A stretch of 32,000 bases of DNA, from positions 1,110,001 through 1,142,000 of the forward strand of contig OY969931.1 of assembly GCA_963704705.1 (NCBI GenBank). The letters are read 5' to 3'. The notes under the pieces were generated by a model that had not been told where the DNA came from, ran no database searches, and saw nothing but the letters and a program-made list of their open reading frames with translations. Of the stretch, positions 2,073-32,000 are shown piece by piece; position 1 is the first letter of the stretch; each line of letters starts with the position of its first letter. The DNA is from an uncultured bacterium (lineage in GTDB: Bacteria; Patescibacteriota; Gracilibacteria; UBA1369; PNNO01). The translations under genes were made by a program, and so were the position numbers.

Positions 2073-2143
2073 CAGAGCCGAGCAACGCGAGGGTCTGGCG
2101 AGCGAAAACTTATCGCGAGCCTAAGCGTGAGCAAAGCGAACAC
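2073..2143 (+). repeat. R2: GC-rich repeat copy starting at the first base after the rpoB stop
   Basis: cagagccgagcaacgcgagggtctggcgagcgaaaacttatcgcgagcctaagcgtgagcaaagcgaacac. Opens with CAGAGC, rich in GAGCGA/AGCGA units, contrasts with AT-rich flanks. Confidence 0.6.
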
Positions 2144-2174
2144 AATAGAACACACTTAATCTTTAACCAAACGA

Positions 2175-2705
2175 ATGATGAGAAGTGTAAATAAAGTCAT
2201 CTTGATAGGAAACCTGACAAGGGATCCGGAGATGCGACAAACAGCAAACGGGCAGATGGTTACTACATTCTGCATCGCGACAAACCGTGAATGGGTTACA
2301 AAAGACAGTGAAAAACACGGATTAGCAGAATATCACGATATCGTTGCTTGGGCGCGTCTTGCAGAAATCTGCAACAAATACCTTAAAAAAGGAAAACTTG
2401 TATACATCGAAGGTTACCTAAAAACACGAAGCTGGGATACTCCTGAAGGTGTAAAAAAATTCAGAACCGAAGTGGTTGCACAGGATATGATCATGCTTGA
2501 AAAAAGACCAAAAGGTGAAGAAGGCGAAGAATATATTCCGGAAAGTGACGAATATGTTCATGAAGAAGAACCAATGCAGAGCGAGCCAAAGGCGAGCTCT
2601 TCTGGAGCGAACGAAGTGAGCGAAGCGGAAAAAGAAAAAGAAGAGAAAAAAGAAGAGAAAAAAGAAGAATCTAAGGTCGATATATCAGCTGACCTTGGAC
2701 TTTAA
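2175..2705 (+). CDS. ssb: single-stranded DNA-binding protein
   Basis: OB-fold SSB pattern (VILIGNLTRDPEMR, YHDIVAWARLAE, LVYIEGYLKTRSW), then an acidic low-complexity linker. The tail ends DISADLGL rather than the classical DDDIPF-type tip. Start could be 2178. Confidence 0.9.
   Translation: MMRSVNKVILIGNLTRDPEMRQTANGQMVTTFCIATNREWVTKDSEKHGLAEYHDIVAWARLAEICNKYLKKGKLVYIEGYLKTRSWDTPEGVKKFRTEVVAQDMIMLEKRPKGEEGEEYIPESDEYVHEEEPMQSEPKASSSGANEVSEAEKEKEEKKEEKKEESKVDISADLGL
2577..2628 (+). repeat. R3: GC-rich repeat copy in frame within the ssb linker
   Basis: cagagcgagccaaaggcgagctcttctggagcgaacgaagtgagcgaagcgg. AGAGC...GCTCT stem. Read as QSEPKASSSGANEVSEAE. Confidence 0.65.
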
Positions 2706-2728
2706 CCCTTAATTAGCAATCAGCTATT

Positions 2729-3694
2729 ATGAGTGAACTCCTACAAACAATTTTACTATTCGCGGTAGCCCTATTCTTTCTGGTTAAATCAGCAGATTAT
2801 CTGGTGAAATATTCAGAAAAGTTAGGGTTATCGCTTGGAGTTCCTTCATTTATTGTCGGGATAACAATAATCAGTGCGGGTACTTCCCTGCCGGAACTTG
2901 CCACATCAATCTTCTCTATAGTTAAAGGAGAACCAGGTGTTGTTGCAGGTAACGTAATTGGTTCAAATATTGCCAATATTTTACTGGTTGTTGGTGTCGC
3001 TACAATAATTGCAAAAAAAATCGAAATCAAAAGAAGCCTAATCAGGCTTGATCTTCCGTTGCTGGTAGGGGCAAGCGCAATTTTGGTTTTGACTGTAATG
3101 GACGGCAAATTTACATTTATTGAAGGTGTAATTTCAATTTTAGGTTTCATAATCTACTTAATTTATAGTCTTACTGAACAGAAAAAACCTTTGGAGGAAA
3201 AAGAAAAAGGTTTAATAAAAACTTTGAAAGGTGAACAAAGGCCGCCCTTCAAATGGATTTATATTTTATGGATAGTAATTTCAGCTGCAGTACTTTATTT
3301 CTCTGCAAATTTCACTATTGATGCGGTTATAACAATGGGAGCAATTTTAAATTTAGATACATCTATCATCGCAATTACCGCTATAGCTATTGGTACTTCG
3401 CTTCCTGAACTTATTGTTTCTGTAACAGCAGCGAAAAAAGGTAAATTTGATATCGCTTTAGGTAATGTACTTGGTTCAAATATTTTTAACGGATTTATGA
3501 TAATGGGTGTTTCAGGTGTTATAACTGACCTGCCTGTTGAACCTGCGGTACTTAATATTGGTGTACCGTTTTTAATTGTTGCAACAATTTTTCTTGCTTT
3601 CTCAGGTATCGAACGAAAATTTTACAACTGGGAAGGCGCGCTTTACTTAATATTATATTTCCTATTTATAGGACAACTCTTTAACTTTATATAA
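2729..3694 (+). CDS. Ca2+/Na+ (CaCA family, YrbG-like) antiporter
   Basis: Polytopic membrane protein with duplicated alpha-repeat signatures [10 protein letters not shown] / [10 protein letters not shown] and GNVIGSNI / GNVLGSNI. Its stop lies 1 nt before the rpoC ATG. Confidence 0.88.
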
Positions 3695-3695
3695 A

Positions 3696-6600: not shown

Positions 6601-7628
6601 GTGAACCTGGAACACAGCTTACCATGCGTACATTCCACATGGGTGGTGTTGCGGAAGGAAAAGATATTACTCAGGGTCTTACACGTGTTGAAGAACTATT
6701 CGAAGCAAGAACTCCTAAATCTCCTGCTGTACTGGCTGAAATCGATGGCAAAGTTAAAATCAGTCAAAAAGGTAAAACAGCTGCAATCACTGTTATTTCA
6801 GAAGAACCGATAATTACTCAATATCCGCTTGGCGCTTTCATGAAAGCCGAAGTGAAAAAAGGAGATAAGATTAAAGAAAAACAGGTTATTGCAAAATCTA
6901 CAAAGCAAAAAAATCTTATAAAAGCTGAAAATGACGGCAAAGTTCTTAGCGTTAGTGATGAAATGATTGAACTAATTTCAGATGACGTTGTTGAAAGAGT
7001 TTATACAATTCCTCAAGGTAAAACTATCCTTGTTAAAAACGGCGATAAAGTTACCAAAGGACAGGCGCTTACATCAGGTCACTTGAATTTGAGACAATTG
7101 ATGCAGTTAACCGACATATACAATCTGCAAAAATATATTATGCAGGAAGTACAAAGTATATATGCTTCACAGGGTCAGACAATCAATGATAAACACATTG
7201 AGATTATTGCGAGACAAATGCTTTCTAAATCAAGGATTCTTGATTCCGGTGACACAAACATGTTACCAGGTGAACTTGTTGATACCATTGAACTTGAAAA
7301 GCTTAACGCTGACTTGATTAAGAAGAAAAAACACCCTGCTGATGCTGAAAGATTACTTCTTGGACTTACAAGGATTTCACTTTATACAGATAGCTGGCTT
7401 TCTGCTGCTTCATTCCAGGAAACAATCCGTGTGCTTGTTGAAGCATCAACAACTAAACGTATTGATAACCTTGAAGGTCTTAAAGAAAACGTTATCATCG
7501 GTAAACTTATTCCTGCAGGAGATACTTATAAGAACAGAAACCCTGAATTGGTTAAAGAAATGGAGAAATACTATACGAAAAAAGAAAAAGAGGAAACAGT
7601 GCAGGAAGAATCACTTGGAGAAATGTAG
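3696..7628 (+). CDS. rpoC: DNA-directed RNA polymerase subunit beta'
   Basis: 1310 aa. N-terminal Zn motif [23 protein letters not shown], catalytic [12 protein letters not shown], conserved [17 protein letters not shown]. Confidence 0.98.
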
Positions 7629-7630
7629 TC

Positions 7631-7677
7631 GGATTGGGGCGATGTGCAAGTTGTTCACTCGCACATCGCCCCAATCC
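7631..7677 (+). other. perfect 17-bp stem hairpin 3 nt after the rpoC stop, no U-tract
   Basis: ggattggggcgatgtgc (7631-7647) is the exact reverse complement of gcacatcgccccaatcc (7661-7677), with a 13-nt loop. Followed by tctgctcat, not a T run. Confidence 0.6.
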
Positions 7678-11218: not shown

Positions 11219-11300
11219 TATATAGAGGGTTAAATAGCAAAATCGCTAAATATAAGTATACAACGTTAGCCAAAATTACGAAAGCGAGTTGACGAATAAT

Positions 11301-11335
11301 AAAAAGCCCGCCCCACTACGATGAGTGGGGCGGGC
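11301..11335 (-). terminator. intrinsic terminator of small ORF A
   Basis: On the minus strand: gcccgccccact-catcgt-agtggggcgggc, then ttttt. 12-bp GC-rich stem (11306-11317 / 11324-11335). Confidence 0.8.
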
Positions 11336-11354
11336 GCGAAGTTCGATGAGGCGA

Positions 11355-11498
11355 TTAGGTGCCGAGTCGTCCTGTCCACGCGAGTACGTGGAAGACGACA
11401 AAAGGCGGGCAGAGCACAGTGAAGATGGCGGTAACCACGATCATGGTGTTGAAGTGACGCTTTGCGCTTCTCTTCAGCTCTTTGTTCTCGTTCATCAT
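11355..11498 (-). CDS. small hydrophobic peptide A (47 aa): MMNENKELKRSAKRHFNTMIVVTAIFTVLCPPFVVFHVLAWTGRLGT
   Basis: Absent from the ORF track, which lists nothing shorter than 60 aa. AAGGAGA Shine-Dalgarno 5 nt upstream of the first ATG (plus-strand tctcctt 11504-11510). Basic N-terminus plus one ~24-aa TM segment. About half G+C by hand count. Terminator follows directly. Confidence 0.55.
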   Translation of the reverse strand: MMNENKELKRSAKRHFNTMIVVTAIFTVLCPPFVVFHVLAWTGRLGT

Positions 11499-11819
11499 AC
11501 TTTCTCCTTTCCTTGTAATGGGTTGGTGCCTCAAAGAACATAAAGCTTCTTGCTGTACTTAAAATCAAGTCAGTAAAAAGACAGGCTAATAAAGTACCAC
11601 AATTAAATACGAAATCAATGTTACATCGTGACTGCCTGCATTTTATACATTCTAAACTTTTTGTCGATTGTTGTTTCGGATTGATGCTTGAGCTCGTCGT
11701 GTTTTTAAATATCGCCCATGGTTTTTTGTGATGAATTTCTTAAGCCGGCTTATTGCATGTGCCTTTGCCCATTTTTTGTTTGATGATTTTAAGTTTTAGA
11801 ATAATTTTTGGATTACAAG

Positions 11820-11854
11820 AAAAAACCTACCGCGCAACATGTGTACGCGGCAGG
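11820..11854 (-). terminator. intrinsic terminator of small ORF B
   Basis: On the minus strand: cctgccgcg-tacacatgttg-cgcggtagg, then tttttt. 9-bp stem with one G-U pair. Confidence 0.7.
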
Positions 11855-11874
11855 CATGAAGCGGCCGGTCAGGA

Positions 11875-11994
11875 TCAGTTGCATCCGGGAAGAGGGACAC
11901 CTATGAAGTGCAGCAACAGTGGCAGAACCCAGAGTATTACTACTACCCCAAGGGCTATCGAAACCCAGAATTTAACTTTCTTGTCTTTTGCCAT
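11875..11994 (-). CDS. small hydrophobic peptide B (39 aa): MAKDKKVKFWVSIALGVVVILWVLPLLLHFIGVPLPGCN
   Basis: Lies in frame inside track ORF 11875..12105. AGGAGA (plus-strand tctcct 12001-12006) sits 6 nt before this ATG; an alternative ATG at 12000 abuts the SD. Lys-rich N-terminus plus one TM segment, GC-rich codons, own terminator. Confidence 0.55.
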   Translation of the reverse strand: MAKDKKVKFWVSIALGVVVILWVLPLLLHFIGVPLPGCN

Positions 11995-12085
11995 TGGCAT
12001 TCTCCTTTCAGATTTCGGCCTGTATAATTTCGAATTGCGCTTCGCAACAACTGGAACGAGCACAATCCAAGCAAATTGTAATTGA

Positions 12086-12113
12086 ACCTTATCACTTTTG
12101 CTCAATTTGTCAA
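12086..12113 (-). promoter_or_regulatory. candidate promoter for small ORF B, back-to-back with the fusA promoter
   Basis: Minus strand: TTGACA (12113-12108), 16 nt, TAAGGT (12091-12086). Confidence 0.35.
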
Positions 12114-12130
12114 CTTAAAGCACTTTGCGT

Positions 12131-12158
12131 TTGACTTTTACCGCATACTCCCTATAAT
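12131..12158 (+). promoter_or_regulatory. candidate promoter for fusA
   Basis: TTGACT (12131-12136), 16 nt, TATAAT (12153-12158), about 55 nt upstream of the fusA ATG. Confidence 0.55.
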
Positions 12159-12211
12159 ACCTCTGGCGCTTTATTAGCGGCCATTTTTATATCTATTTAA
12201 CTATAAAAATC

Positions 12212-15555: not shown

Positions 15556-16749
15556 ATGGCTGAACAAGAAAAGTTTGATCGTTCAAAGCCACACGTTAAC
15601 GTGGGTACCATCGGGCACGTAGACCATGGTAAAACAACTCTAACTGCTGCTATCACTGCTGTTGCTGCTGCAAAAATGGGTGGTAAAAACAAAGCAGTTG
15701 CGTTCGATCAAATCGACAATGCTCCTGAAGAAAAAGAAAGAGGTATTACAATCGCAACCTCTCACCAGGAGTACGAAACAGAAAAAAGACACTATGCGCA
15801 CGTGGATTGTCCAGGGCATGCTGACTACGTAAAAAATATGATCACTGGTGCGGCACAAATGGATGGTGCGATTCTTGTAGTATCTGCTGCAGACGGACCA
15901 ATGCCACAAACTCGTGAACACATACTATTGGCTCATCAGGTAAACGTTCCATACATTATTGTTTTTTTAAACAAAATGGATATGGCTGACCCTGAAGTTG
16001 CTGAACTTGCAGAAATGGAAGTTCGCGATCTTTTAACTAAATATGAATACCCTGGAGACGAAATTCCAGTTATTAAAGGATCTGCTCTTAAAGCTCTTGA
16101 AAATCCAACAGGGCCAGATGCAGAACCAATTGTTGAATTATTAAACACGCTTGATACTTATATTCCGGATCCAAAACGTGAAATCGATAAAGATTTCTTA
16201 ATGCCTGTGGAAGATGTATTCTCTATTAAAGGTAGAGGTACTGTTGCTACCGGACGTATTGATACAGGAATTGTAAGAATTAATGACGAAGTAGAAATCG
16301 TTGGAATTAAACCAACAAGAAAAGTTATTGTTACAGGAGTTGAAATGTTCAAAAAACTTCTTGATGAAGGACGCGCTGGTGATAACGTTGGTGTTCTTTT
16401 AAGAGGTATTGAAAGAGAAGAAATCGAAAGAGGACAGGTTCTTGCTAAACCAGGAACAATTAAACCACACACTAAATTCGAAGCTGAAGTTTACATCCTA
16501 ACTAAAGAAGAAGGCGGACGTCATACTCCATTCTTCAAAGGATACAAACCTCAATTCTATATCAGAACTACTGATGTAACCGGTTCAATCGAACTTCCAC
16601 CGGATGTTGAAATGGTAATGCCTGGTGATAAAGTAAACATGAAAGTTGAACTTGGTACACCAATCGCGATGGATGAAGGTCAAAGATTTGCGATTCGTGA
16701 AGGTGGTAGAACAGTTGGAGCTGGTGTAGTAGCTAAAATCATGGATTAG
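15556..16749 (+). CDS. tuf: translation elongation factor Tu
   Basis: [22 protein letters not shown]; 397 aa, highly conserved throughout. Confidence 0.99.
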
Positions 16750-16805
16750 AGAGCGACCAAAGGGAGCTCTTTGGAGCGAGCCGCGTTAAGGCGGCGAGCG
16801 AAGCT
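16750..16805 (+). repeat. R4: GC-rich repeat copy starting right after the tuf stop
   Basis: agagcgaccaaagggagctctttggagcgagccgcgttaaggcggcgagcgaagc. AGAGC (16750-16754) pairs with GCTCT (16766-16770). Second small stem gccgc/gcggc. Confidence 0.65.
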
Positions 16806-16825
16806 AAAAAATATAAGTCCTAGTC

Positions 16826-16853
16826 GCCCCTGCCGAAAGGTGGGGGCTTTTTT
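16826..16853 (+). terminator. intrinsic terminator after tuf
   Basis: gcccctgcc-gaaa-ggtgggggc, then tttttt. GAAA tetraloop, two G-U pairs. Confidence 0.7.
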
Positions 16854-16901
16854 AGACCAGGTCTGGCGGGTAGACCAGGTCTGGCCGCCAGACCTGGTCT
16901 A
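16853..16901. promoter_or_regulatory. array of three 15-bp TAGACCAGGTCTGGC units (two direct, one inverted), each holding the palindrome AGACC-W-GGTCT
   Basis: Units at 16853-16867, 16871-16885 and inverted at 16887-16901. Units 2 and 3 form a perfect 31-bp palindrome. Core centres are 18 bp apart. The array ends 5 bp before the -35 of the next promoter. Confidence 0.6.
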
Positions 16902-16906
16902 AATCA

Positions 16907-20933: not shown

Positions 20934-21353
20934 ATGAAAAATTACTTTTCAGAAAACCGTTTAGTTTTCATGGGCATGGAAGGTGGCCCAAGTGGAACAC
21001 CTGAAGCTGCAGAAGCTGCTAAAGTTTCACCTGAAACCACAGCAAGCTTATCATTTAAATTTTTAAAGCTTGGCAAAAATTTTGATGCAAATCAATTACA
21101 AACAGCAGCAAAAAATTTCGTTAATAAAGAACCAAATCAATTAAATAGAATTAATAAAATTAAAAGCTATTTGCAACAAAACATTCCTGATTTTAATTCT
21201 CATGCAAAAGGCAAACTTGCAGACCAAGCACAAGAAATAGCTTCAAAAATGGAAAGCGGTATCAATGCTATTGCTTTTTCTCCAATAAAAAAGTTAGACA
21301 AAATGGTAAAAGCATATAATAAAGATAAAAATAAAGAGAGAGGAAATGCTTAA
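20934..21353 (+). CDS. hypothetical protein (139 aa) with N-terminus MKNYFSENRLVFMG
   Basis: Long ORF after a candidate promoter. Hydrophilic, K/N/Q-rich. Shares an N-terminal module with the next ORF. Confidence 0.6.
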   Translation: MKNYFSENRLVFMGMEGGPSGTPEAAEAAKVSPETTASLSFKFLKLGKNFDANQLQTAAKNFVNKEPNQLNRINKIKSYLQQNIPDFNSHAKGKLADQAQEIASKMESGINAIAFSPIKKLDKMVKAYNKDKNKERGNA

Positions 21354-21363
21354 TAATTATATT

Positions 21364-22137
21364 ATGAATAATCTATTTTCAGAAAATCGTTTGGTGTACA
21401 GAGGCGGCGGTGACAGGCCGCGTCCTCGAGAAGCTGTAAATGAAAGCAGTGAAGTTCCTAATGGGAAAATGCTTCCTTTGGCAAAAAAAATGGTTAAAGA
21501 CATGATTGATGGTAATAATGGTTTGAGTAGAAGTAAATTTGCCAAACTTAAAAGCCAACCTGATAAACAGAAGAAAATGATAGAAAGCTGGCTTAAAAAT
21601 ACTGGCCTATCTAAAAAAGAAAAAGAAAACCTTATGGGAACTGACACAATAACCGAATATTATATTGGAAATAAAAAAGTAAGTCCTGACAAAGTTGCCA
21701 ATGAGGTGCACACTTTTATAAAAGATAAAGCGAACCAGAAAAAAATCATGGATGCTATTAAAAAAGAAAAACAACAGTCCGAACAAACAAGGCAATCTAC
21801 AGAAACAACCACTCAATTTAAAGAAAACAATAGCTGGCCAAGTCAAAGAGCTGCAAATATAGCATCAAGCTTTTACTCAAATACACTACAGAAAGCTGCT
21901 CAAAAAGCCATGAAGCTTACATCTAATGTAAGAGAAAGAAATAAAATTACTCCGGATAAAGTTAAAAATAAAATCAATAGTGTAATACAACCTGGTGCTC
22001 ATATTGCTGAAATTAGAGCAAACTGGGGAATAGACTCGGAAAATATTAAATTCAACGGACCAAAAGCATGGCCGATGATAAATACCTCTGCTAAAAGACG
22101 ACAATTACAAAATAAAATACTACGTTCAATAGTGTAA
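21364..22137 (+). CDS. hypothetical protein (257 aa) with N-terminus MNNLFSENRLVYRG
   Basis: ATG 21364 chosen over 21346 because it aligns the N-terminus with the upstream paralogous module. Hydrophilic and K-rich. Confidence 0.6.
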   Translation: MNNLFSENRLVYRGGGDRPRPREAVNESSEVPNGKMLPLAKKMVKDMIDGNNGLSRSKFAKLKSQPDKQKKMIESWLKNTGLSKKEKENLMGTDTITEYYIGNKKVSPDKVANEVHTFIKDKANQKKIMDAIKKEKQQSEQTRQSTETTTQFKENNSWPSQRAANIASSFYSNTLQKAAQKAMKLTSNVRERNKITPDKVKNKINSVIQPGAHIAEIRANWGIDSENIKFNGPKAWPMINTSAKRRQLQNKILRSIV

Positions 22138-22155
22138 AAATTCCTAAAATACCTA

Positions 22156-22184
22156 TTGACTTCTATATGTTGCTCACTTATACT
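22156..22184 (+). promoter_or_regulatory. near-consensus promoter for the rplC-to-secY operon
   Basis: TTGACT (22156-22161), 17 nt, TATACT (22179-22184), leaving a ~100-nt leader before rplC. Confidence 0.6.
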
Positions 22185-22288
22185 GGGCCGGCAACATGTT
22201 TTTTTATGTTACACGTTCGGTTTAAGGGCGCCGCATAAACAAGGCAAAAACGAAAGATCTTTAAACCGCATTAACCAATTTAGTAAAC

Positions 22289-22884: not shown

Positions 22885-23556
22885 ATGAAAGCAGACTTAT
22901 ACACACAAACAGGAGAGAAAAAAGGACAAGTTGAATTAAAAAAAGAATTTTTTGAAGTTCCTTATAATAGAGATTTGATTCACCAGGCGCTTGTGCGTCA
23001 GCAGGCTAATGCAAGAGCTCCGTTTGCTCACACTCTTCAAAGAGGTGAAGTTAACGCGACTAACAAAAAGCCGCACAGACAAAAAGGAACTGGTTATGCA
23101 AGACAGGGTTCAAGAGTTGGCCCTCATATGAGAGGCGGAGGAATAGTGTTTGGTCCTAGAAAAGAAAGAAACTACACTGTGGCAATGCCAAAGAAACAAA
23201 GAAGAAAAGCTTTGTTCTCAGCATTATCAGTAAAAGCGAGAGATAATCAGATTATGGCTTTGGAAGGATATGAAGGAGAAGTTAAGACAAAATCATTTGC
23301 AGAAATGATCGCAAAATTACCAATTGAAAGAAATGTATTAGTTGTTATACCAGAGAAAAACGTAGTGATCCAAAGATCATCAAATAATCTACCTAATGTT
23401 AAAACTATTTTAGTTGGATATCTAAATATAGCTGATCTGCAGAAATACAGAAATGTTCTGTTCCTGAAAGATGCCCTTACTAAAATGGAAGAAGTTTTCC
23501 AGAGTGAGAAGGGCGCAGCGAAAGCGACCTCTAAATCTACTAAAACTAAAGAATAA
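22885..23556 (+). CDS. rplD: 50S ribosomal protein L4
   Basis: L4 pattern (KKPHRQKGTGYARQGS, GGGIVFGP) and synteny. The C-terminal tail contains repeat R5. Confidence 0.96.
   Translation: MKADLYTQTGEKKGQVELKKEFFEVPYNRDLIHQALVRQQANARAPFAHTLQRGEVNATNKKPHRQKGTGYARQGSRVGPHMRGGGIVFGPRKERNYTVAMPKKQRRKALFSALSVKARDNQIMALEGYEGEVKTKSFAEMIAKLPIERNVLVVIPEKNVVIQRSSNNLPNVKTILVGYLNIADLQKYRNVLFLKDALTKMEEVFQSEKGAAKATSKSTKTKE
23500..23537 (+). repeat. R5: diverged repeat copy in frame in the rplD tail
   Basis: cagagtgagaagggcgcagcgaaagcgacctctaaatc. AGAG...CTCT stem. Shares the TCTAAATC end with R9. Read as QSEKGAAKATSKS. Confidence 0.45.
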
Positions 23557-24986: not shown

Positions 24987-25018
24987 CAGTCATGAGCCGC
25001 GAGGCGAATGACCAATCC
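24987..25018 (+). repeat. R6: diverged repeat copy starting at the first base after the rpsS stop
   Basis: cagtcatgagccgcgaggcgaatgaccaatcc. Stem GTCAT/ATGAC around a gagccgcgaggcga loop. Confidence 0.45.
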
Positions 25019-25030
25019 TAATATTAAAAA

Positions 25031-25477
25031 ATGAAAGCAATCGCAAAACATGTAAGGATATCACCAAAAAAAGCAAATTTAGTTGCCGGATTGGTTAGAA
25101 GTAAAAATGCAGTGGAAGCACTTGATATCTTGAAATTCACACCTAAAAAAGCAGCAAAAATTCTTTATAAGGTTCTGCACAGCGCAGTTGCAAACGCTGA
25201 AAACAACTTTAAACAGAATAAAGACGCATTAATAGTAAAAGAAATTGTAGTAACTGAAGGACGCACATTAAAAAGAAGTGTTCCAATCTCAAGAGGAAGA
25301 GTTCATCCGATTCTAAAAAGGTCATCTCACATAACTATTACAGTAGGATTACCAGAAGGCGTAGCGACTGAAAATAAGGAAAAAGAAGAACCTAAAAAAG
25401 AAAAGGCTGAAAAAAAACCTGAAGTTAAAAAAGAAGTTAAACCTAAAAAAGCTACTAAAACAACTAAATCTAAATAA
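25031..25477 (+). CDS. rplV: 50S ribosomal protein L22 with K/E-rich C-terminal extension
   Basis: L22 core (ISPKKANLVAGLVRSK, AENNF) and synteny. Confidence 0.96.
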   Translation: MKAIAKHVRISPKKANLVAGLVRSKNAVEALDILKFTPKKAAKILYKVLHSAVANAENNFKQNKDALIVKEIVVTEGRTLKRSVPISRGRVHPILKRSSHITITVGLPEGVATENKEKEEPKKEKAEKKPEVKKEVKPKKATKTTKSK

Positions 25478-25480
25478 TCT

Positions 25481-26284
25481 ATGGGACAAAAAGTCAATCC
25501 AGTTAGCATGCGTATGAAAGTGAATCGATTATGGGATTCAAAATGGTATGCAAACAAGAAAAAATATCATAAAACATTACACGAAGACTTTGCTATCGAA
25601 GATATGATACGCGGAAAATTGGTTGATTCAGGTGTTTCACAGGTTGAAATTTTAAGAACAGCAAACGCTGTTGTAATAAATGTTCACACTGCAAAACCAG
25701 GTTTAATTATCGGTCGCGGTGGTGAAACAATCGAAGCATTAAGAGAAAAATTAGAGAAAAAATTCGGAAGCCAATTCAATGTTAATATCCTTGAAATTAA
25801 AAATCCGGCAATTGATGCGCTTTTAGTAGCAGAATCAATTGCAAAGCAGATCGAAAGAAGAATCTCTTATAGAAGAGCTGCAAAAATGGCTATCGATAAA
25901 GCAATGGAAGGCGGAGCTCAGGGAGCAAAAGTAAGAGTTGGAGGAAGACTTAACGGAGTGGAAATCGCAAGAAATGAATTCTTCTCAAAAGGAAAAATTC
26001 CTCTACACACATTCAGGGCAAATATCGATTACGCTTATACCCCTGCAAATACAACTTATGGAGCAATCGGAGTTAAAGTATGGATTTACAAAGGTGATGT
26101 ATTCAAACACGACAGAGCGAGCGAAGCGAGCTCTATGGAAGGAGCGTCAGCGACTGAAGCGGGGAAAAAAGATGAACAAAGGAAAGAAACTAAATCAGAA
26201 AAACCCGCACCAAAAAAAGCTCCGGCAAAAAAACCGATAGCAAAGAAAAAAACTACTACAAGCAAAAGTAACTCTAAAAAATAA
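25481..26284 (+). CDS. rpsC: 30S ribosomal protein S3 with long C-terminal extension
   Basis: MGQKVNP, KH domain [12 protein letters not shown]. The tail contains repeat R7. Confidence 0.97.
26113..26164 (+). repeat. R7: near-consensus repeat copy in frame in the rpsC tail
   Basis: cagagcgagcgaagcgagctctatggaaggagcgtcagcgactgaagcgggg. Read as [17 protein letters not shown], in a different phase from R3 and R5. Confidence 0.7.
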
Positions 26285-26286
26285 TT

Positions 26287-26709
26287 ATGCTCGCACCAAA
26301 AAGATTAAAATTCAGAAAATTGCATAGAGGCAGAAGCCAGCTTAAAGGAAAATCTATGCGCGGAAATATGATTAGTTTCGGTGATTACGCATTGAAATCA
26401 ATTACTGCGGGTGAAGTTAATTCAAGGCAAATAGAAGCTGCCAGAAGAGCAATCACACACTATTGTAAAAGAGGCGGGAAAATATGGATTAGAGTATTCC
26501 CAATGAAACCTATAACTATAAAAGGTGCGGAAACTCCAATGGGTAGCGGTAAAGGTGCTGTGGACAGATACGTAGATGTAGTAAAACCAGGAAAAATTAT
26601 ATTTGAAATGAACGGTGTTACAGAAGAAATAGCAAAAGAAGCTTTAAAAAGAGCTGCACACAAATTACCTGTTCAATGCAAAATTATATCAGCACATAAA
26701 CATCAATAA
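26287..26709 (+). CDS. rplP: 50S ribosomal protein L16
   Basis: [18 protein letters not shown]. Confidence 0.97.
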
Positions 26710-26711
26710 AC

Positions 26712-26936
26712 ATGTTAACTCTACAGGAACTTAAAAAATTATCAGTAAAAGAATTAAATGAAGAATTTGCGCAGGCTTCAAAAGATCTGTTTAAAACTAA
26801 ATTCGAAGTAAGCACAGGAGTATCAAAAGCAAATCATGAAATCGGGAAATTAAGAAGATACAGAGCACAAATAAAAACAACCAAGAAAAGCATGGAAATC
26901 AAAGAAAAAAGTGATTTCCAATCTCAAAAGAATTAA
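26712..26936 (+). CDS. rpmC: 50S ribosomal protein L29
   Basis: Size, ELKKLSVKELNEE..LF pattern, synteny. Confidence 0.9.
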   Translation: MLTLQELKKLSVKELNEEFAQASKDLFKTKFEVSTGVSKANHEIGKLRRYRAQIKTTKKSMEIKEKSDFQSQKN

Positions 26937-26951
26937 TAACTATCTAAAACT

Positions 26952-27188
26952 ATGAGAACAATAACAGGCATAGTGACAAGCAAAAAAATGGATAAGACCC
27001 TTGTACTTACAGTTGATTCTTACAAAAATCATCCTAAATACAAGAAAAGATACAGAGTTTCAAAAAAATTCTATGTAGATAATCCTGAAAATAAATTCGA
27101 AGTTGGAGAAAAAATCACAGTATACGAAAGCAAACCTTTGAGTAAATTGAAAAGATGGACCACCAGAGCGACTGAAGCAAAATCATAA
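26952..27188 (+). CDS. rpsQ: 30S ribosomal protein S17
   Basis: GIVTSKKMDKT, HPKYKKR, synteny. Confidence 0.94.
   Translation: MRTITGIVTSKKMDKTLVLTVDSYKNHPKYKKRYRVSKKFYVDNPENKFEVGEKITVYESKPLSKLKRWTTRATEAKS
27164..27179 (+). repeat. R8: short fragment of the repeat in the rpsQ tail
   Basis: cagagcgactgaagca matches both ends of R7 (CAGAGCGA... and ...GCGACTGAAGC). Read as RATEA. Confidence 0.3.
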
Positions 27189-27212
27189 AAAATTAACTAT
27201 TAATTAAAAGCA

Positions 27213-27581
27213 ATGATTCAACCGGAAACTAAATTACAGGTAGCAGACAATACAGGCGCTAAAATGGTGAAATGTATTAAAGTGCTTGGAGGATCAAAAA
27301 GAAGATATGCATCAATTGGAGATATCATAGTTGTATCTGTAAAAGAAGCTGCGCCAAAGGGAATTGTTAAGAAAAAATCTGTTGAAAAGGCAGTGATAGT
27401 AAGATGTCAAAACGCAGTAGGAAGAAAAGATGGTTCATATATTAGATTCGATGAAAATGCAGTTGTAATTGTAAATAAAGATATGCAGCCGAAAGGAACC
27501 CGTGTATTTGGACCGGTTGCAAGAGAGTTAAGAGAAAAAGGGTTCCAAAAAATTATATCATTAGCACCAGAAGTAATTTAA
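27213..27581 (+). CDS. rplN: 50S ribosomal protein L14
   Basis: [17 protein letters not shown], highly conserved. Confidence 0.98.
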
Positions 27582-27587
27582 ATAACT

Positions 27588-27914
27588 ATGAAAATTAAAG
27601 TAAATGACAATGTATTGGTAATTACAGGTAAAGATCGCGGTAAAAGCGGTAAAGTATTAAGAACATTGGCAAAAGATGAAAGAGTTGTAGTGGAAAAAGT
27701 TAATATGAGAACTAAACACATTAAAAAATCTCAAACAAGACCGGGCAGCAAAATTACTTTTGAAGCTCCAATGAATGTAAGCAATGTTATGGCTGTATGC
27801 CCTAGCTGCAAAAAAACAACAAGAGTAGGTTACAAGAAATTAGAAAGCGGAAGAAAACAAAGAGTATGTAAAAAATGTAATGAATCACTTGATAAAATTG
27901 AATCTAAAAAATAA
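27588..27914 (+). CDS. rplX: 50S ribosomal protein L24 (Cys4-containing form)
   Basis: KOW motif VITGKDRGKSGKV. CPSC (27798-) and CKKC (-27878) pairs in the C-terminal hairpin region. Confidence 0.95.
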   Translation: MKIKVNDNVLVITGKDRGKSGKVLRTLAKDERVVVEKVNMRTKHIKKSQTRPGSKITFEAPMNVSNVMAVCPSCKKTTRVGYKKLESGRKQRVCKKCNESLDKIESKK

Positions 27915-27947
27915 CGGACGCGAGCGACAGCGAAGCGTCTAAATCCC
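27915..27947 (+). repeat. R9: repeat copy starting at the first base after the rplX stop
   Basis: cggacgcgagcgacagcgaagcgtctaaatccc. Stem GGACGC/GCGTCT around a gagcgacagcgaa loop. Confidence 0.55.
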
Positions 27948-27959
27948 TAACTGAAAAAA

Positions 27960-28514
27960 ATGGCTAAAGAAAAATCAGGACTAAAAGAACGGTTTTATAA
28001 AGAAATAGCTCCCAAGTTAATGGCTGATTTAGGGATAACTAACCTGAACGCTGTACCAAGACTTGATAAAGTCGTTATAAATGCCGGTCTTGGAAGTCAT
28101 TACACTTCAGGAAGCAAAGACTTTTCAGTATTTGAAGATAACTTTAGCGCAATATCAGGTCAAAAACCGGTTGTAAGAAAATCTAAAAAAGCAATTTCGA
28201 ACTTCAAGATAAGACAGGGTATGCCTAACGGTGTAATGGTAACACTCAGAGGAGATAGAATGTATGACTTTATTGATAAACTGGTTAATATTGTATTCCC
28301 TCGAGTAAGAGACTTCAGAGGAATATCAAAAAAAGCATTTGATGGAAGAGGAAATTATTCAGTTGGACTAAAAGAACACATTGTATTCCCTGAAATTAAT
28401 CCTGATGATATTGCTAAAATCCATGGTTTACAAATATGCGTAAATACAACTGCTGGAAATGATGAACATGGAAAAGCATTATTAGTCGCATTGGGATTCC
28501 CGTTTAAAAAATAA
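27960..28514 (+). CDS. rplE: 50S ribosomal protein L5
   Basis: L5 pattern (NLNAVPRLDKVVINAG, FPRVRDFRG) and synteny. Confidence 0.97.
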   Translation: MAKEKSGLKERFYKEIAPKLMADLGITNLNAVPRLDKVVINAGLGSHYTSGSKDFSVFEDNFSAISGQKPVVRKSKKAISNFKIRQGMPNGVMVTLRGDRMYDFIDKLVNIVFPRVRDFRGISKKAFDGRGNYSVGLKEHIVFPEINPDDIAKIHGLQICVNTTAGNDEHGKALLVALGFPFKK

Positions 28515-28526
28515 CTTTAATTAAAT

Positions 28527-28751
28527 ATGGCTCGTACAGCACTAATCGTAAAAACTAAGAAAAAGCAGAAAGAATACCTTAATGCATTGCAGCAAGGTAA
28601 AAAGCCTAAATTCCCAACAAGAGTTTATAACAGATGCGAAAGATGCGGCAGAAACAGAGGATATTTGAGAAAGTTCAATATGTGCAGAATATGCGTAAGA
28701 GAACTTGCTCAAAAAGGAAAGATTGCAGGGCTTACAAAGTCTTCTTGGTAG
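28527..28751 (+). CDS. rpsN: 30S ribosomal protein S14, zinc-binding (type Z-like)
   Basis: CERCGR...CRIC motif, ends GLTKSSW. Confidence 0.95.
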
Positions 28752-28770
28752 AGCGTAGCGGATCGAAAAT
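28751..28770 (+). repeat. R10: 3'-half copy of the repeat, overlapping the rpsN stop codon
   Basis: gagcgtagcggatcgaaaat resembles the GGAGCGAAGCGAAGCGAAAAAT half of R11. Confidence 0.35.
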
Positions 28771-28807
28771 AACTATAACTACTACATACTAATTATAAAT
28801 TTATAAC

Positions 28808-29194
28808 ATGAATACAGACCCAATCTCAGATTATTTAACTAGAATCAGGAATGCGTCGAGAGCGAAACATTCGAAAGTTGTAATACCATATTCAAAACTT
28901 AAGGAAGAGATTACAAAAGTATTACAAAAAAGAAAATTCTTAGGTGCATATGAAGTAAAAGAAAACGGTAAATTCAAAGAATTAGTTGTTGAAATAAAAC
29001 CTTGGAGTATGGAGCCGTTAACATTAACAAGAGTAAGCAGACCCGGTCAAAGAATCTATATGAACCATAAAGATATTAGAGCCGTAAAAAACGGTCTTGG
29101 AGTATTGATACTATCAACATCTAAAGGAATTATGCCCGGAGAAGAAGCGCGAGATAAAAAAATGGGTGGTGAAGCAATCTGTAAAGTTTATTAA
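28808..29194 (+). CDS. rpsH: 30S ribosomal protein S8
   Basis: DPISDYLTRIRNA, LSTSKGIM. Confidence 0.97.
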   Translation: MNTDPISDYLTRIRNASRAKHSKVVIPYSKLKEEITKVLQKRKFLGAYEVKENGKFKELVVEIKPWSMEPLTLTRVSRPGQRIYMNHKDIRAVKNGLGVLILSTSKGIMPGEEARDKKMGGEAICKVY

Positions 29195-29237
29195 CAGAGC
29201 GCAGCATAAGCGGAGCTCTATGGAGCGAAGCGAAGCG
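29195..29237 (+). repeat. R11: near-consensus repeat copy starting at the first base after the rpsH stop
   Basis: cagagcgcagcataagcggagctctatggagcgaagcgaagcg. AGAGC/GCTCT stem, followed by a pure A/T spacer. Confidence 0.7.
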
Positions 29238-29272
29238 AAAAATAATAATTATAATAATAAAATTAAATCACA

Positions 29273-29824
29273 ATGTCACGAATAGGAAAATTACCAATTG
29301 AAATACCAGCAGGAGTTACCGTTGATATAAAAAACGGGTTAGTAACTGTGAAAGGACCTAATGGCGAATTATCTGAAGCAATTCATCCTAATATTAAAAT
29401 AGAGGTAAAAGATAATGAAATTCTTTGTTTAAGAGAAGGTGAAGATAATTTATCAAGAAGTCTGCATGGATTATCTCGAAATCTTATTAACAACATGGTT
29501 ATAGGGGTTACAAAAGGTTTTGAAAGACGACTAGAAATAATCGGTGTTGGATATAAAGCTCAGCCATCGGGAAATAAAGTTACACTTAATCTAGGTTATT
29601 CTCACCCGATTGAATATAAAGCTCCTGAAGGGATTAAATTCGAACTTGATCCTGATAAAAAGAACTTATTAATTATTACAGGAAACAGTAAACAAGTAGT
29701 TGGTGAAGTAGCGGCAAAAGTAAGAAGCTACAGAAAACCAGAACCATATAAAGGAAAAGGTATTAGATACTCTGATGAATATGTTGCACGTAAAGTTGGT
29801 AAAGCAGTAGCGAAAGGCGAATAA
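29273..29824 (+). CDS. rplF: 50S ribosomal protein L6
   Basis: MSRIGKLPIEIP, GVGYKA, KGIRY. Confidence 0.97.
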   Translation: MSRIGKLPIEIPAGVTVDIKNGLVTVKGPNGELSEAIHPNIKIEVKDNEILCLREGEDNLSRSLHGLSRNLINNMVIGVTKGFERRLEIIGVGYKAQPSGNKVTLNLGYSHPIEYKAPEGIKFELDPDKKNLLIITGNSKQVVGEVAAKVRSYRKPEPYKGKGIRYSDEYVARKVGKAVAKGE

Positions 29825-29866
29825 CAGAGCGAGCGATAGCGAGCTCTATGGAACGAAGTGGAGCGG
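29825..29866 (+). repeat. R12: near-consensus repeat copy starting at the first base after the rplF stop
   Basis: cagagcgagcgatagcgagctctatggaacgaagtggagcgg. AGAGC/GCTCT stem. Confidence 0.7.
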
Positions 29867-29905
29867 AATAAAATAATTACTAAATAATAAATTAATTATC
29901 ATAAA

Positions 29906-30250
29906 ATGCCATCAGTAAAAGAAATCACAAGAAAAAGACGACATCAAAAAATCTCTAAGAAAGTTAGAGGAACTGCAGCAAGACCAAGATTAGTTATATT
30001 TAAGAGTAATATGAGTACTTATGTTCAGTTAATTGATGACGACGCAAATAAGACATTAACTTGCATATCAGACGTAAAAGATAAAAAGCCAACTAATGTT
30101 GAAAGCGCAAAGAAAATCGGTTTGGAAGTTGCAAAGAAAGCAAAAGAATTAAAAGTTGATACCTGCGTATTTGATCGCAATGGATATAAATATCACGGCT
30201 TAGTTAAAGCATTAGCTGATGCTGCTCGTGAAGGAGGACTAAACTTTTAA
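29906..30250 (+). CDS. rplR: 50S ribosomal protein L18
   Basis: RPRLVIFKSN, FDRNGYKYHG, REGGLNF end. Confidence 0.96.
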   Translation: MPSVKEITRKRRHQKISKKVRGTAARPRLVIFKSNMSTYVQLIDDDANKTLTCISDVKDKKPTNVESAKKIGLEVAKKAKELKVDTCVFDRNGYKYHGLVKALADAAREGGLNF

Positions 30251-30282
30251 TTACTAATTACTAATTTCTAATAACTAATTAT
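30248..30282 (+). repeat. five tandem heptamers (TAATTAC TAATTAC TAATTTC TAATAAC TAATTAT) filling the rplR-rpsE spacer
   Basis: Read directly. Starts on the rplR TAA and ends 4 nt before the rpsE ATG. Confidence 0.8.
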
Positions 30283-30286
30283 AGAT

Positions 30287-30838
30287 ATGGGAAAACCAGC
30301 ACATAAAAAAGGTAGATCACCAATGAAAGAAGTTAAGGAATACGAAGAAGAAGTAATTCAGATTGATCGTGTTACCAGAGTAGTAAAAGGTGGACGAAGA
30401 CTTAGATTCAGAGCAACTGTTGTTATTGGCAACAGAAAAGGTAAAGTCGGAATCGGTATCGGAAAATCTACCGAGGTTGCTGCTGCAATTCAAAAAGCAA
30501 TCCAAAAAGCTAAACGTTCACTAATTATTGTTCCTATTTTCAGAGATACAATCCCGCACGATATTAAACATAAATTTAAGAGTTCAAGAATTATGATGAT
30601 GCCTGCTGGAGAAGGTACCGGTATTATTGCAGGAGGTGCAGTTCGTAAAGTTGTGGAATTGGCTGGAATTAAAAATATTTTAAGTAAATCGTTTGGAACA
30701 AATAATAAAGTGAGTAATACTCAATGTGCTTATGAAACTTTAAAACTATTAAGAAAAAGAACAGAAAGACCAAAAGCAGGAGCGACCAAAGCGGAGCTTC
30801 TTAAGGAGCAAAGCGAAGCGAAACCATCAAAAGAATAA
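30287..30838 (+). CDS. rpsE: 30S ribosomal protein S5
   Basis: VTRVVKGGRRLRFRA, GTGIIAGG. The C-terminal tail contains repeat R13. Confidence 0.97.
   Translation: MGKPAHKKGRSPMKEVKEYEEEVIQIDRVTRVVKGGRRLRFRATVVIGNRKGKVGIGIGKSTEVAAAIQKAIQKAKRSLIIVPIFRDTIPHDIKHKFKSSRIMMMPAGEGTGIIAGGAVRKVVELAGIKNILSKSFGTNNKVSNTQCAYETLKLLRKRTERPKAGATKAELLKEQSEAKPSKE
30777..30820 (+). repeat. R13: diverged repeat copy in frame in the rpsE tail
   Basis: caggagcgaccaaagcggagcttcttaaggagcaaagcgaagcg. Closest to R4. Read as GATKAELLKEQSEA. Confidence 0.55.
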
Positions 30839-30858
30839 TTCTATAAATTTAATTTAAA

Positions 30859-31410
30859 ATGACATTAACAGTATTAAAAAGCAATCAGGGAGCAAGGCAT
30901 AAAAGCAAACGTCTTGGACGTGGTAACGGTTCAGGAAAAGGAACTTATAGTGGAAGAGGTATGAAAGGTCAGAAAGCAAGAAGTGGCGGTGGAGTAAGAC
31001 CGGGATTTGAAGGAGGACAAACTCCTTTCGTTCAAAAAATGCCTAAATTAAAAGGATTTAGAAATCCAAATCATATTAATTATCAGGTTGTGAATGTTAA
31101 AGATCTTGAAATGTTTGATAGCGGAGCAGCAATTGATGCAACTTCACTATTTGAAAAAGGATTGGTTGCAAAGAAAAATTTCCCTGTTAAGATTTTAGGA
31201 GATGGTGAAATTACAAAAAAATTAAATGTTAAAGTAAATAGTATTTCAAAAAGTGCTGAAGAAAAAATAACTAAAGCAGGCGGTAAGTGCGAACTTCTAC
31301 CTAAGAAAGAAAAGATTGAAGGAAAAAAAGCAAAAGCTATAAGAGTAGCTAAAGAAGAAAAAGAAGCAAAAGCTGAAGAGGCTCCAGCTGAAGAAGAGCC
31401 TAAAGCATAA
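30859..31410 (+). CDS. rplO: 50S ribosomal protein L15 with K/E/A-rich C-terminal extension
   Basis: RLGRGNGSGKGTYSGRG, GFEGGQTP. Follows rpsE directly, with no L30 gene between. Confidence 0.96.
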   Translation: MTLTVLKSNQGARHKSKRLGRGNGSGKGTYSGRGMKGQKARSGGGVRPGFEGGQTPFVQKMPKLKGFRNPNHINYQVVNVKDLEMFDSGAAIDATSLFEKGLVAKKNFPVKILGDGEITKKLNVKVNSISKSAEEKITKAGGKCELLPKKEKIEGKKAKAIRVAKEEKEAKAEEAPAEEEPKA

Positions 31411-31424
31411 CCCTCCCCTACTAA

Positions 31425-32000
31425 ATGATTAAATATTTAAAACAAATCTGGAATTCAAAGGATTTACGAAAAAAAATCCTTTTTACAATTTCAATTCTAG
31501 TTATTTATAGAATTTGTACTCAAATATCTATTCCGGGTGCAGATTTGGATGCTATCAGAACAGTAATCAATAAAAACCAATTACTTGGTATTTTCAGTGC
31601 ATTAACAGGTGGATCAGCAAAAAACTTTTCTATTATTTTGATGGGACTTTCACCTTACATCAATGCATCTATCATAATGCAGCTTTTGACTGTAATTGTG
31701 CCGAAACTTGAAAACTTATCGAAAGAAGGTGAAGCAGGAAGAAGAAAAATTAATCAGTATACAAGATGGATGGCTGTGCCAATCGCATTCCTTCAGTCTT
31801 ACGGAATGATTGTACTTATTAATTCACAGGCTGCAGTGCCTATTGTGCCAAATATTGCCGACCCTGCTGTTGTATTGCCGATAATGCTAACTATCACAGC
31901 TGGAACAATATTCTTGATGTGGCTTGGTGAACTTATTACTGAAAGCGGTATCGGAAATGGTATTTCACTTATAATCTTCGCGGGTATTATCGCAAATATA
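31425..32000 (+). CDS. secY: preprotein translocase subunit SecY, 5' part (runs off the window)
   Basis: ATG 31425, open for 192 codons to the window end. MIKYLKQIWNSKDLRKKILFT..., LGIFSALTGGS, GLSPYINASIIMQLL, QYTRW. Absent from the ORF track because it has no stop. Confidence 0.93.
   Translation, partial: MIKYLKQIWNSKDLRKKILFTISILVIYRICTQISIPGADLDAIRTVINKNQLLGIFSALTGGSAKNFSIILMGLSPYINASIIMQLLTVIVPKLENLSKEGEAGRRKINQYTRWMAVPIAFLQSYGMIVLINSQAAVPIVPNIADPAVVLPIMLTITAGTIFLMWLGELITESGIGNGISLIIFAGIIANI

Follow-up and report, generated by a model that had tools for sequence, protein, structure and literature searches.

The 32-kb stretch of DNA analysed here (positions 1,110,001 to 1,142,000 of contig OY969931.1, 36% GC; hereafter the window) comes from a member of the Peribacteria in the candidate phyla radiation (CPR), whose closest named genomes are metagenome-assembled genomes of Candidatus Peribacteria / Peregrinibacteria. 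We found that it carries 12-13 copies of a GC- and purine-rich module of 45-60 nt, every copy lying on the sense strand, either at a stop codon or inside a gene, where it is translated. We consider it about 70% probable that these copies belong to a lineage-specific, sense-strand structured repeat family of a Peribacteria sub-clade, which would act as RNA and for which the translated peptide would be a by-product. The window covers a transcription and ribosomal cluster with the 3' part of rpoB, ssb, a Na/Ca-exchanger gene, rpoC, the genes for S12 and S7, fusA and tuf, followed downstream by the S10 gene, the ribosomal-protein genes from L3 to L15 and the start of secY at the window end, with hypothetical genes interspersed.

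The corresponding loci of relatives were retrieved through their S3, SSB and IF-1 homologues, using the protein database and contig look-ups. L161, L162, L168 and L171 are loci from one genome, about 80% identical to the window at the nucleotide level, and the others are L167 and L169 (89-90%), L164 (84%), L165 (74%) and L170, a Logan assembly of the same strain as the window under a different accession, which extends downstream of it. In total, about 150 kb from six genomes, mainly ribosomal clusters, were sampled (about 120 kb of it in the loci of relatives), and all of the loci just named carry the family, which is thus found in relatives at 74-90% nucleotide identity. No copy was present in L163 (77% identity over 5 kb), in L166 or in the GTDB Peribacteria L001 and L002. 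Protein-seeded scans of GTDB genomes and of JGI metagenome contigs reached only distant relatives (S3 identity <=66% and <=57%), which were element-free. Rfam gave no match at gathering thresholds across the window and none overlapping any copy at E <= 5, and IMG/VR viral contigs, scanned for the exact pattern, yielded no match.

The module starts with a hairpin of 21-29 nt, with about 60% GC against 36% in the genome, in which an outer stem, a G(N)A/G(N)A internal loop, an inner stem and a small loop are followed by GGAGCGAAGCGAAGCGAAAAA. The outer stem of 5-7 bp is mostly AGAGC/GCUCU or GGAGC/GCUCU, and the other versions encountered were GUCAU/AUGAC, GGACGC/GCGUCU, AGAUC/GAUCU, GCGC/GCGC and CGGU/ACCG. 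The purine internal loop is symmetric, being GA/GA in 20 of 29 hairpins and GGA/GGA, GCA/GGA or similar in the remainder, while the inner stem measures 2-5 bp and the terminal loop 3-8 nt. Beyond this first hairpin, the full unit continues with a linker N-U-GGAG, a second GA-bracketed hairpin and a final A-run. The GGAG is kept in most copies and the whole 3' half is conserved (GGAGCGAAGCG), the second hairpin having its minimal form (GCGAAGC) in GGAGCGAAGCGAAGCG and an extended one at tuf, L6 and secY. The word CAGAGCGA occurs four times in the window for 0.49 expected, a count reached by none of 100 shuffles.

The hairpin is maintained by compensatory base changes. Since MAFFT, run unguided on full copies, placed the hairpin arms out of register, we used a covariance model built from 8 equal-length copies, among them the S3 copy flagged by an initial annotation of this DNA, together with a hand-registered, N-padded alignment of 29 hairpins from four genomes. 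The model recovered non-seed window copies at E = 2e-11 to 3.5e-5; in the controls, which were ribosomal loci of other bacteria (1.48 Mb), it gave a single match, at E = 0.27. Among the 29 hairpins, whose registration used the structure (and is to that extent circular) and mixes paralogues, 91.9% of cells were paired, as compared with 73.7% in shuffles and 33-53% when the partners were slid, and 36 cells showed compensatory changes against 8.7 +/- 3.1 in shuffles, with 0 of 500 shuffles reaching 36. Because of this registration, stem changes at orthologous sites are the cleaner evidence of covariation. At one such site, the second tuf hairpin reads GCCGC/GCGGC in the window, GUGCC/GGCAC in L161 and GCUGC/GCAGC in L165, all of them GA...GA bracketed. 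Likewise, the stem of the post-L6 copy is AGAGC/GCUCU in the window and GCGC/GCGC in L165, and that of the S17 copy is GGAGC/GCUCU in L161 and CGGU/ACCG in L165.

The same nucleotides are either untranslated, read in one frame (frame A) or read in another (frame B), and the resulting peptides are unrelated. In the window, seven copies are post-stop (rpoB, tuf, rpsS, rplX, rpsN, rpsH and rplF) and five are in-gene, two in frame A (ssb and rplD) and three in frame B (rpsC, rpsQ and rpsE). The initial annotation had listed these non-coding copies and these reading phases. All of the former were found, those of rpsN and, among the in-gene ones, rpsQ being short remnants, and gene-start arithmetic and translation gave the same phases for the five genes. 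Its title also counted RpoB among the translated cases, which has to be corrected for the window, where the rpoB copy (2073-2143) is wholly post-stop; it is in relatives that RpoB is a host. Over the six genomes, 19 in-gene copies were seen, 13 in frame B, 5 in frame A and 1 in a doubtful frame C, and about 40% of all copies seen lie inside coding sequence. Their codons are atypical. Ala is encoded by GCG in 14 of 16 cases (88%) in translated copies against 61 of 471 (13%) in the background (p = 1.3e-10), Ser by AGC in 50% against 14%, and the GC content at third codon positions is 0.54 against 0.24. The tail peptides show no protein-level conservation across the class. The suggestion of the initial annotation that a nucleic-acid element came first, and that the peptide would be its by-product, is thus supported by four independent lines, namely the three phases, the alien codons, the turnover of orthologues at 74-90% identity and the compensatory changes.

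The module has no stop codon in two or three of its sense frames and encodes a peptide rich in Gly, Ala, Ser, Thr, Glu and Lys, so copies falling in frame in disordered tails and linkers are tolerated and translated. The hosts of translated copies are S3, SSB, L4, S17 and S5 in the window, to which relatives add L22, L29, IF-1 and the RpoB N-terminus, and every in-gene copy lies in a tail or a linker, as the initial annotation had stated for tolerant regions. In SSB, the invariant C-terminal tip DISADLGL is encoded downstream of the copy in the same frame, which requires in-frame reading through the ssb copy; the end of the S3 tail, rich in Lys, Thr and Ser, is placed likewise. The initial annotation had further proposed that such insertions might partly explain the long ribosomal-protein extensions of the lineage. 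This applies to a few tails, such as those of L4, S17 and L29, and not to these extensions in general, since long tails also occur in the element-free relatives L163 and L166.

Copies have been gained, lost, replaced, internally deleted and shifted between post-stop and in-gene positions among close relatives. The orthologue alignment proposed with the initial annotation thus reveals presence/absence differences and switches between coding and non-coding, and tails that are not conserved as protein. The post-S8 and post-L6 sites contain a copy in the window (spacers of 78 and 81 nt) but none in L161 (30 and 29 nt), the element being the only difference between filled and empty sites. The rpsH site is also filled in L165, with a different stem. 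The tuf copy has orthologues with compensatory stem changes in L161 and L165 and is absent in L166; the rpsS copy has an orthologue in L161 and a variant in L165 and is absent in L163, L164 and L166; and the rplX copy has an orthologue in L161. The S14 (rpsN) site holds a remnant in the window and a full copy, with the stop codon inside the stem, in L161.

In-gene copies behaved in the same manner. For S5, the window has one copy in the tail, L161 has a tail copy at the same residue as well as one beyond the stop, and L165 has no copy. The tail of L4 derives from the element in the window and in L164, with a full copy in the latter; in L161, L163, L165 and L166 there is no copy and the protein ends 2-5 codons past EEVF/EEIY. 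L29 has 92 aa in L161, which carries a tail copy, versus 74 aa in the window, and S17 has 89 aa in L161, with a full tail copy, versus 78 aa. In the L168 RpoB, a perfect copy (E = 7e-16) forms a 57-nt in-frame insertion, absent from L167, in the Lys-rich N-terminal extension that RpoB has in this clade. The composite copy after rpoB is kept in the window, L169 and L168, and L167 has a short remnant into which its RpoB frame runs.

The ssb copy is common to the window and L167, and L169 has in its place an unrelated segment of 57 nt (19 codons), of exactly equal length and with near-identical flanks. Similarly, the window S3 copy takes the place of an ancestral DVELTELP-type segment between shared AGAG and ACTGAAG anchors; in L161 and L165 an orthologous copy lies at another place in the S3 tail, which in L161 contains a second copy as well. 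Both the S3 and the SSB copy therefore substitute segments of similar or equal length without adding length, which hints at recombination or conversion rather than transposition. The window S3 copy is identical at 46 of 49 positions to the copy in the IF-1 tail of L161, though the two genomes are only about 80% identical.

The orientation of the copies follows that of the genes. Motif clusters in the window are on the plus strand only, and every high-scoring covariance-model match is in the sense orientation of its local gene. On the minus strand there are two copies, one (L168 16582-16620) after or overlapping the stop of a minus-strand SLH/beta-propeller gene, the other (L171 15484-15528) providing a minus-strand hypothetical gene with its last codons and its TGA stop, which indicates, from two cases only, that orientation follows transcription and not the DNA strand. 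The second of these copies lies in a 46-nt spacer where its gene converges with trmD, and is antisense to the trmD 3' end.

The intergenic copies examined all start 0-5 nt past a stop codon or include it, usually at highly expressed cistrons (ribosomal proteins, tuf, rpoB, rpoA and secY), and the stop lies inside the stem at tuf in the window, at rpoA in L170 and L171 and at S14 in L161. They are flush with the stop even in long spacers, such as the 222 nt after tuf. The flanks of in-gene copies share no common 5' target motif, and therefore target specificity does not explain this rule. Within the window, a copy is associated with 12 of 27 information-processing genes and 0 of 10 others (p = 0.015), and the non-ribosomal flanks of L167 and L168, about 16 kb, were free of copies. 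Locally, in a sample that is a ribosomal gene cluster, there are about 12 copies per 32 kb. Programmed stop-codon readthrough was considered and rejected, since for the post-stop copies of rpsS, rpsH and rplF 2-4 codons precede the next stop in frame. The 33 plus-strand genes of the window end with TAA in 29 cases, TAG in 4 and TGA in 0.

How could such a module work? Under the explanation that we favor, it would act as RNA within the transcript, folding at the 3' end of the upstream cistron of a polycistronic mRNA into a cap or processing landmark similar to repetitive extragenic palindromic (REP) elements, and would spread by a copy-and-paste or gene-conversion-like process. The specific role as a REP-like cap or landmark at cistron ends in long polycistronic mRNAs is one that we put forward tentatively, with less than even confidence. 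REPs are known to make the mRNA upstream of them more stable (Stern et al. 1988, cited in PMC3184786). Other structural assignments were tried and rejected: the hairpins are not intrinsic terminators, being followed by GGAG... and an A-run instead of a U-run; they are not kink-turn/L7Ae motifs, their internal loops being symmetric 2x2 (GA/GA, 20/29) or 3x3 with a likeness limited to the tandem G-A; and they are not integron attC sites, as no core sites are present.

Several observations weigh against our explanation. A canonical terminator lies downstream of the tuf copy, where a second protective hairpin looks redundant, and the copies in the RpoB N-terminus and SSB linker are far from a cistron end and cannot be 3' caps. 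The covariation alignment was hand-registered by structure and mixes paralogues, and its shuffle control ignores relatedness. By thermodynamic z-scores, whether computed for RNA or for DNA and whichever strand was used, most copies could not be told apart from shuffles, and most single copies fold no better than these (z = -0.4 to -0.8 for ssb, S3 and S8). The pairs include 12 G-U against 6 A-C mismatches, a weak wobble argument for RNA over DNA. The hairpin is nearly as intact in in-gene copies as in intergenic ones (89% versus 96% of cells paired, p = 0.06), a retention that is unexpected under a pure by-product model unless the copies are young. Finally, the link with highly expressed genes may partly reflect the sampling of about 150 kb of mostly ribosomal sequence.

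In an alternative, the module would be a selfish REP/RAYT-like or MITE-like DNA repeat, mobilised as a single-stranded DNA hairpin and devoid of RNA function, its orientation and stop-flush position resulting from the insertion mechanism or from survivorship (GC hairpins being tolerated only far from A/U-rich leaders, which have no Shine-Dalgarno motif). The presence/absence polymorphism seen at about 90% genome identity, insertions of about 48-57 nt that are clean, near-identical copies in unrelated genes of different genomes, and the copies in the RpoB N-terminal tail and the SSB linker, which have no conceivable 3'-end role, all agree with it. The stability of GCGAAGC and of tandem G-A motifs extends to single-stranded DNA, which counts in the same sense. 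However, neither terminal inverted repeats nor consistent target-site duplications were seen. At the filled versus empty sites S8-L6, L6-L18, RpoB N-terminus and L4, no consistent duplication was detected, the flanks being low-complexity and A/T-rich, and the GCTCC(C/G) that flanks one S3 copy in L165 and L161 equally fits the element's own ends. There is no GTAG-type 5' signature and the in-gene flanks share no target motif. The orientation tracks genes, unlike the replication-strand bias of IS200/IS605-type transposition, orthologous hairpins persist with compensatory changes across genomes 74-80% identical, and the tuf and rpoB spacers are roomy, yet their copies are still stop-flush. We consider this alternative unlikely.

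Another possibility, distinctly unlikely in our view, is a dedicated stop-adjacent RNA signal, in which a lineage-specific nuclease or RNA-binding protein would read the conserved symmetric G-A loop and the single-stranded GGAG and so punctuate or insulate cistrons of the giant ribosomal-protein mRNAs in a CPR lineage devoid of Shine-Dalgarno motifs; the strictly sense-oriented spread into highly transcribed genes, in S3 and SSB as patches of equal length with microhomology at their borders, might then be transcription-coupled or due to RNA-templated copying, and not to classical transposition.

It is very improbable that the module serves termination or re-initiation of translation, the terminating ribosome having to melt a hairpin that begins 1-2 nt past the stop and the single-stranded GGAG pairing with the 16S anti-Shine-Dalgarno, so as to slow termination, insulate adjacent cistrons or tether ribosomes for the following one. 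The intergenic copies examined, all flush with the stop or including it even in long spacers, and the GGAG conserved after the first hairpin in most copies would suit such a role, as would the leaders of the window genes, which are A/T-rich and without a Shine-Dalgarno motif. Reportedly, in work by Liang, Rudd and Deutscher of 2015 in Molecular Cell, E. coli REPs at a distance of up to about 15 nt from a stop codon cause ribosomes to stall and set off trans-translation. On the other hand, last-gene copies, such as that of tuf with its terminator behind, have no downstream cistron, and copies deep inside coding sequence cannot act in this way.

Selection at the protein level for low-complexity tail modules rich in Ser, Ala, Glu and Gly, with the DNA likeness secondary, has a negligible chance of being right: the peptides are compatible with disorder and the predominance of frame B (13/19) could hint at a preference for one peptide, but the module is non-coding at 7 window sites, gives unrelated peptides in two frames and uses atypical codons, its tails are unconserved among relatives, and its hairpin covaries. 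Equally negligible is an artefact of sequencing, assembly or annotation, with true stops upstream of the elements, as the initial annotation had envisaged, or frameshifts making false tails; GC-rich hairpins can in principle disturb sequencing, and nothing else favors it, while the L170 assembly is 100% identical to window positions 25534-32000 (6,467 nt, spanning the S3, S17 and S5 copies), so that these tails are not assembly artefacts, equivalent in-frame copies are present in JGI, NCBI and Logan assemblies of relatives, and the copies are followed in the same frame by conserved features, namely the tip of SSB and the Lys/Thr/Ser-rich S3 tail end.

We then return to the structured, RNA-acting repeat family and its place among known systems. 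Small repeats are known to fuse in frame to genes, internally or by extending their 3' ends (PMC3184786, PMC10969869, PMC5896051), and the Peribacteria stop-codon repeat is a new example of this established phenomenon, similar to REPs and to Rickettsia palindromic elements (RPEs). Like the REPs and BIMEs of Enterobacteria and Pseudomonas, its copies are short, G+C-rich, imperfect stem-loops, numerous, located just downstream of genes in operons, transcribed, and variable in presence between strains. In contrast to them, the present family is sense-only and made of single copies, never inverted pairs or BIME/REPIN clusters; it has no GTAG, its 5' flank being TAA-C(A) or C(C); it possesses a tandem G-A internal loop, a conserved 3' half and stop-codon abutment; and it is not extragenic as REPs are, 5 of the 12-13 window copies and 19 over the six genomes being in coding sequence.

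The parallel with RPEs (Ogata et al. 2000, as summarised in PMC10969869) had been drawn in the initial annotation, and is borne out in that both are palindromic, occur intergenically as well as in frame in unrelated, often essential genes, add a peptide at tolerant places and are found in small-genome bacteria. From that summary, and by description rather than sequence, RPEs are about 100-150 bp long, occur in Rickettsia and sit in internal surface loops, whereas the present repeat measures 45-60 nt, occurs in the unrelated Peribacteria, uses two frames and is strongly tied to stops, terminal tails and linkers; it does not belong to the RPE family.

QMITEs of Coxiella, the pneumococcal BOX, RUP and SPRITE repeats, ERIC and Correia elements share the 3' untranslated location and the occasional 3' extension or in-frame fusion, and their truncated copies resemble REPs (PMC3184786, PMC10969869, PMC5896051). 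They differ by their size of about 100-250 bp and, usually, by terminal inverted repeats and target-site duplications, of which no consistent instance was seen here. A full-text search found no literature linking CPR/Patescibacteria with REP, MITE or intergenic repeats, and nothing of the kind is mentioned in a paper on complete genomes of Peribacteria, which (at 58.5% GC) are of a different lineage.

Stem-loops that stabilise polycistronic mRNAs between cistrons or at their 3' side include the malE-malF REP and those of Rhodobacter puf. Our functional model is such a hairpin, placed between the cistrons of an operon; these stabilisers are single-locus, unlike the dispersed family described above with its conserved non-Watson-Crick core. 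The copies of the window are collected in Table 1.

Table 1. Copies and remnants of the repeat in the window, with their reading phases, hairpins and scores (E, covariance model; z, folding against shuffles)
Gene	Position	Strand	Placement and reading	Structure and score
rpoB	2073..2143	+	composite copy, starts one base past TAA, wholly non-coding	three GA-bracketed hairpins: AGAGCC-GA-GC-AAC-GC-GA-GGGTCT, GGC-GA-GCGA-AAACTTA-TCGC-GA-GCC, GT-GA-GC-AAA-GC-GA-AC; covariance-model matches at 2069 and 2123
ssb	2577..2633	+	linker, frame A QSEPKASSSGANEVSEAEK; phase at 2577 CAG AGC GAG, giving QSEPKASSSGANEVSEAE; SSB peptide through the copy ASSSGANEVSEAEK	hairpin AGAGC-GA-GCC-AAA-GGC-GA-GCTCT; E = 9e-6
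tuf	16746..16811	+	overlaps TAG stop and continues 3'	two hairpins; z = -4.3; covariance-model match
rplD (L4)	23500..23532	+	most of C-terminal tail, frame A, QSEKGAAKATS; phase at 23500 CAG AGT GAG, giving QSEKGAAKATSKS	degenerate
rpsS	24987..25013	+	post-stop	hairpin only, GTCAT-GA-GCC-GCGA-GGC-GA-ATGAC; z = -3.9
L22 tail	25355..25374	+	possible remnant of the element's 3' part (GAAGGCGTAGCGACTGAAAA), weak call; clearer copies at the equivalent position in L161 and L165	repeat family D17
rpsC (S3)	26113..26170	+	start of C-terminal tail, frame B, reads CAGAGCGAGCGAAGCGAGCTCTATGGAAGGAGCGTCAGCGACTGAAGCGGGGAAAAAA; gene 25481-26284, phase at 26114 AGA GCG AGC	hairpin AGAGC-GA-GC-GAA-GC-GA-GCTCT, then second small hairpin; covariance-model seed
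rpsQ (S17)	27164..27182	+	C-terminus, frame B, RATEAKS; phase at 27165 AGA GCG ACT, giving RATEA	internally deleted remnant
rplX	27915..27940	+	post-stop	hairpin GGACGC-GA-GC-GACA-GC-GAA-GCGTCT; z = -2.3
rpsN	28749..28769	+	after or overlapping stop, TAG AGCGTAGCGGATCGAAAA	remnant
rpsH	29195..29242	+	directly post-stop	full; E = 1.2e-5
rplF	29825..29873	+	directly post-stop	full; E = 2e-11
rpsE (S5)	30777..30823	+	C-terminal tail, frame B GATKAELLKEQSEAK; phase at 30779 GGA GCG ACC, giving GATKAELLKEQSEA	hairpin partly degraded; E = 3.5e-5

Other hairpins were observed in the region. Right after the rpoC stop, a long near-perfect hairpin (7629-7677, TCGGATTGGGGCGATGTGC...GCACATCGCCCCAATCC) has no U-run and a sequence unrelated to the repeat family. 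The canonical terminator that follows the tuf copy (GCCCCTGCCGAAAGGTGGGGGCTTTTTT) lies in the segment 16825-16903 and immediately precedes a palindrome with 26-nt arms (16851-16903, 92% complementary); this terminator and the ATATAAGTCCTAGTCG box before it are kept in L161, L165 and L166. The L3 leader (22138-22288) has a promoter-like TTGACT...TATACT followed by a hairpin and U7 (ACATGTTGC...GGCAACATGTTTTTTT), the same in L161, L165 and L166, and this arrangement may be an S10-operon attenuator. A stretch of 993 nt without genes (11219-12211), with GC patches up to about 42%, separates the minus-strand SLH/beta-propeller gene from fusA. No tRNA, tmRNA or Rfam match was found in it, the equivalent region of L168 has a called open reading frame of 126 aa, and a GA-bracketed hairpin lies at 11344-11369 (CGAT-GA-GGCG-ATTAGG-TGCC-GA-GTCG). 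In the adk-map spacer of L170 (7930-8037), about 105 nt of GC-rich hairpin sequence (GGA-GUGAGCCG...CGGCUCAC-GA...) is absent from L171, where adk and map are 3 nt apart; these hairpins may be another family member or a second GA-bracketed hairpin family.

As to the genes themselves, ssb and the Na+/Ca2+ exchanger gene lie between rpoB and rpoC (99-7628), an order kept in all relatives fetched for this part (L167, L168 and L169), and the L30 gene is absent between those of S5 and L15 in the window. Two adjacent hypothetical genes at 20934-22137, encoding 139 and 263 aa, have similar N-termini (20934-20975 versus 21364-21405, 76% identical) and are probably tandem paralogues; neither protein has a Pfam match above cut-off. 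Genes for FG-GAP-repeat and DUF218 proteins are found on the opposite strand within the ribosomal cluster. Bacterial IF-1 usually has about 72 aa, and in this clade it has 109-141 aa with an acidic C-terminal tail (L161 20302-20655, L165 19896-20321, L170 9978-10307), the L161 tail being the one that holds a copy.

Altogether, this is seemingly the first structured repeat family described in the CPR (Patescibacteria), with no counterpart in Rfam or in the literature searched. It shows that peptide stretches can be written into the cell's most conserved proteins (S3, S5, S17, L4, L22, L29, SSB, IF-1 and RpoB) by a nucleic-acid element, even in genomes of 1.4 Mb. Tails derived from the element will confuse the ribosomal-protein alignments used for CPR phylogeny, and gene callers may misplace stops where the stop codon sits inside the hairpin. 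Finally, the stop-flush, sense-only pattern suggests either a new RNA signal at cistron ends or an unusual mechanism of insertion.

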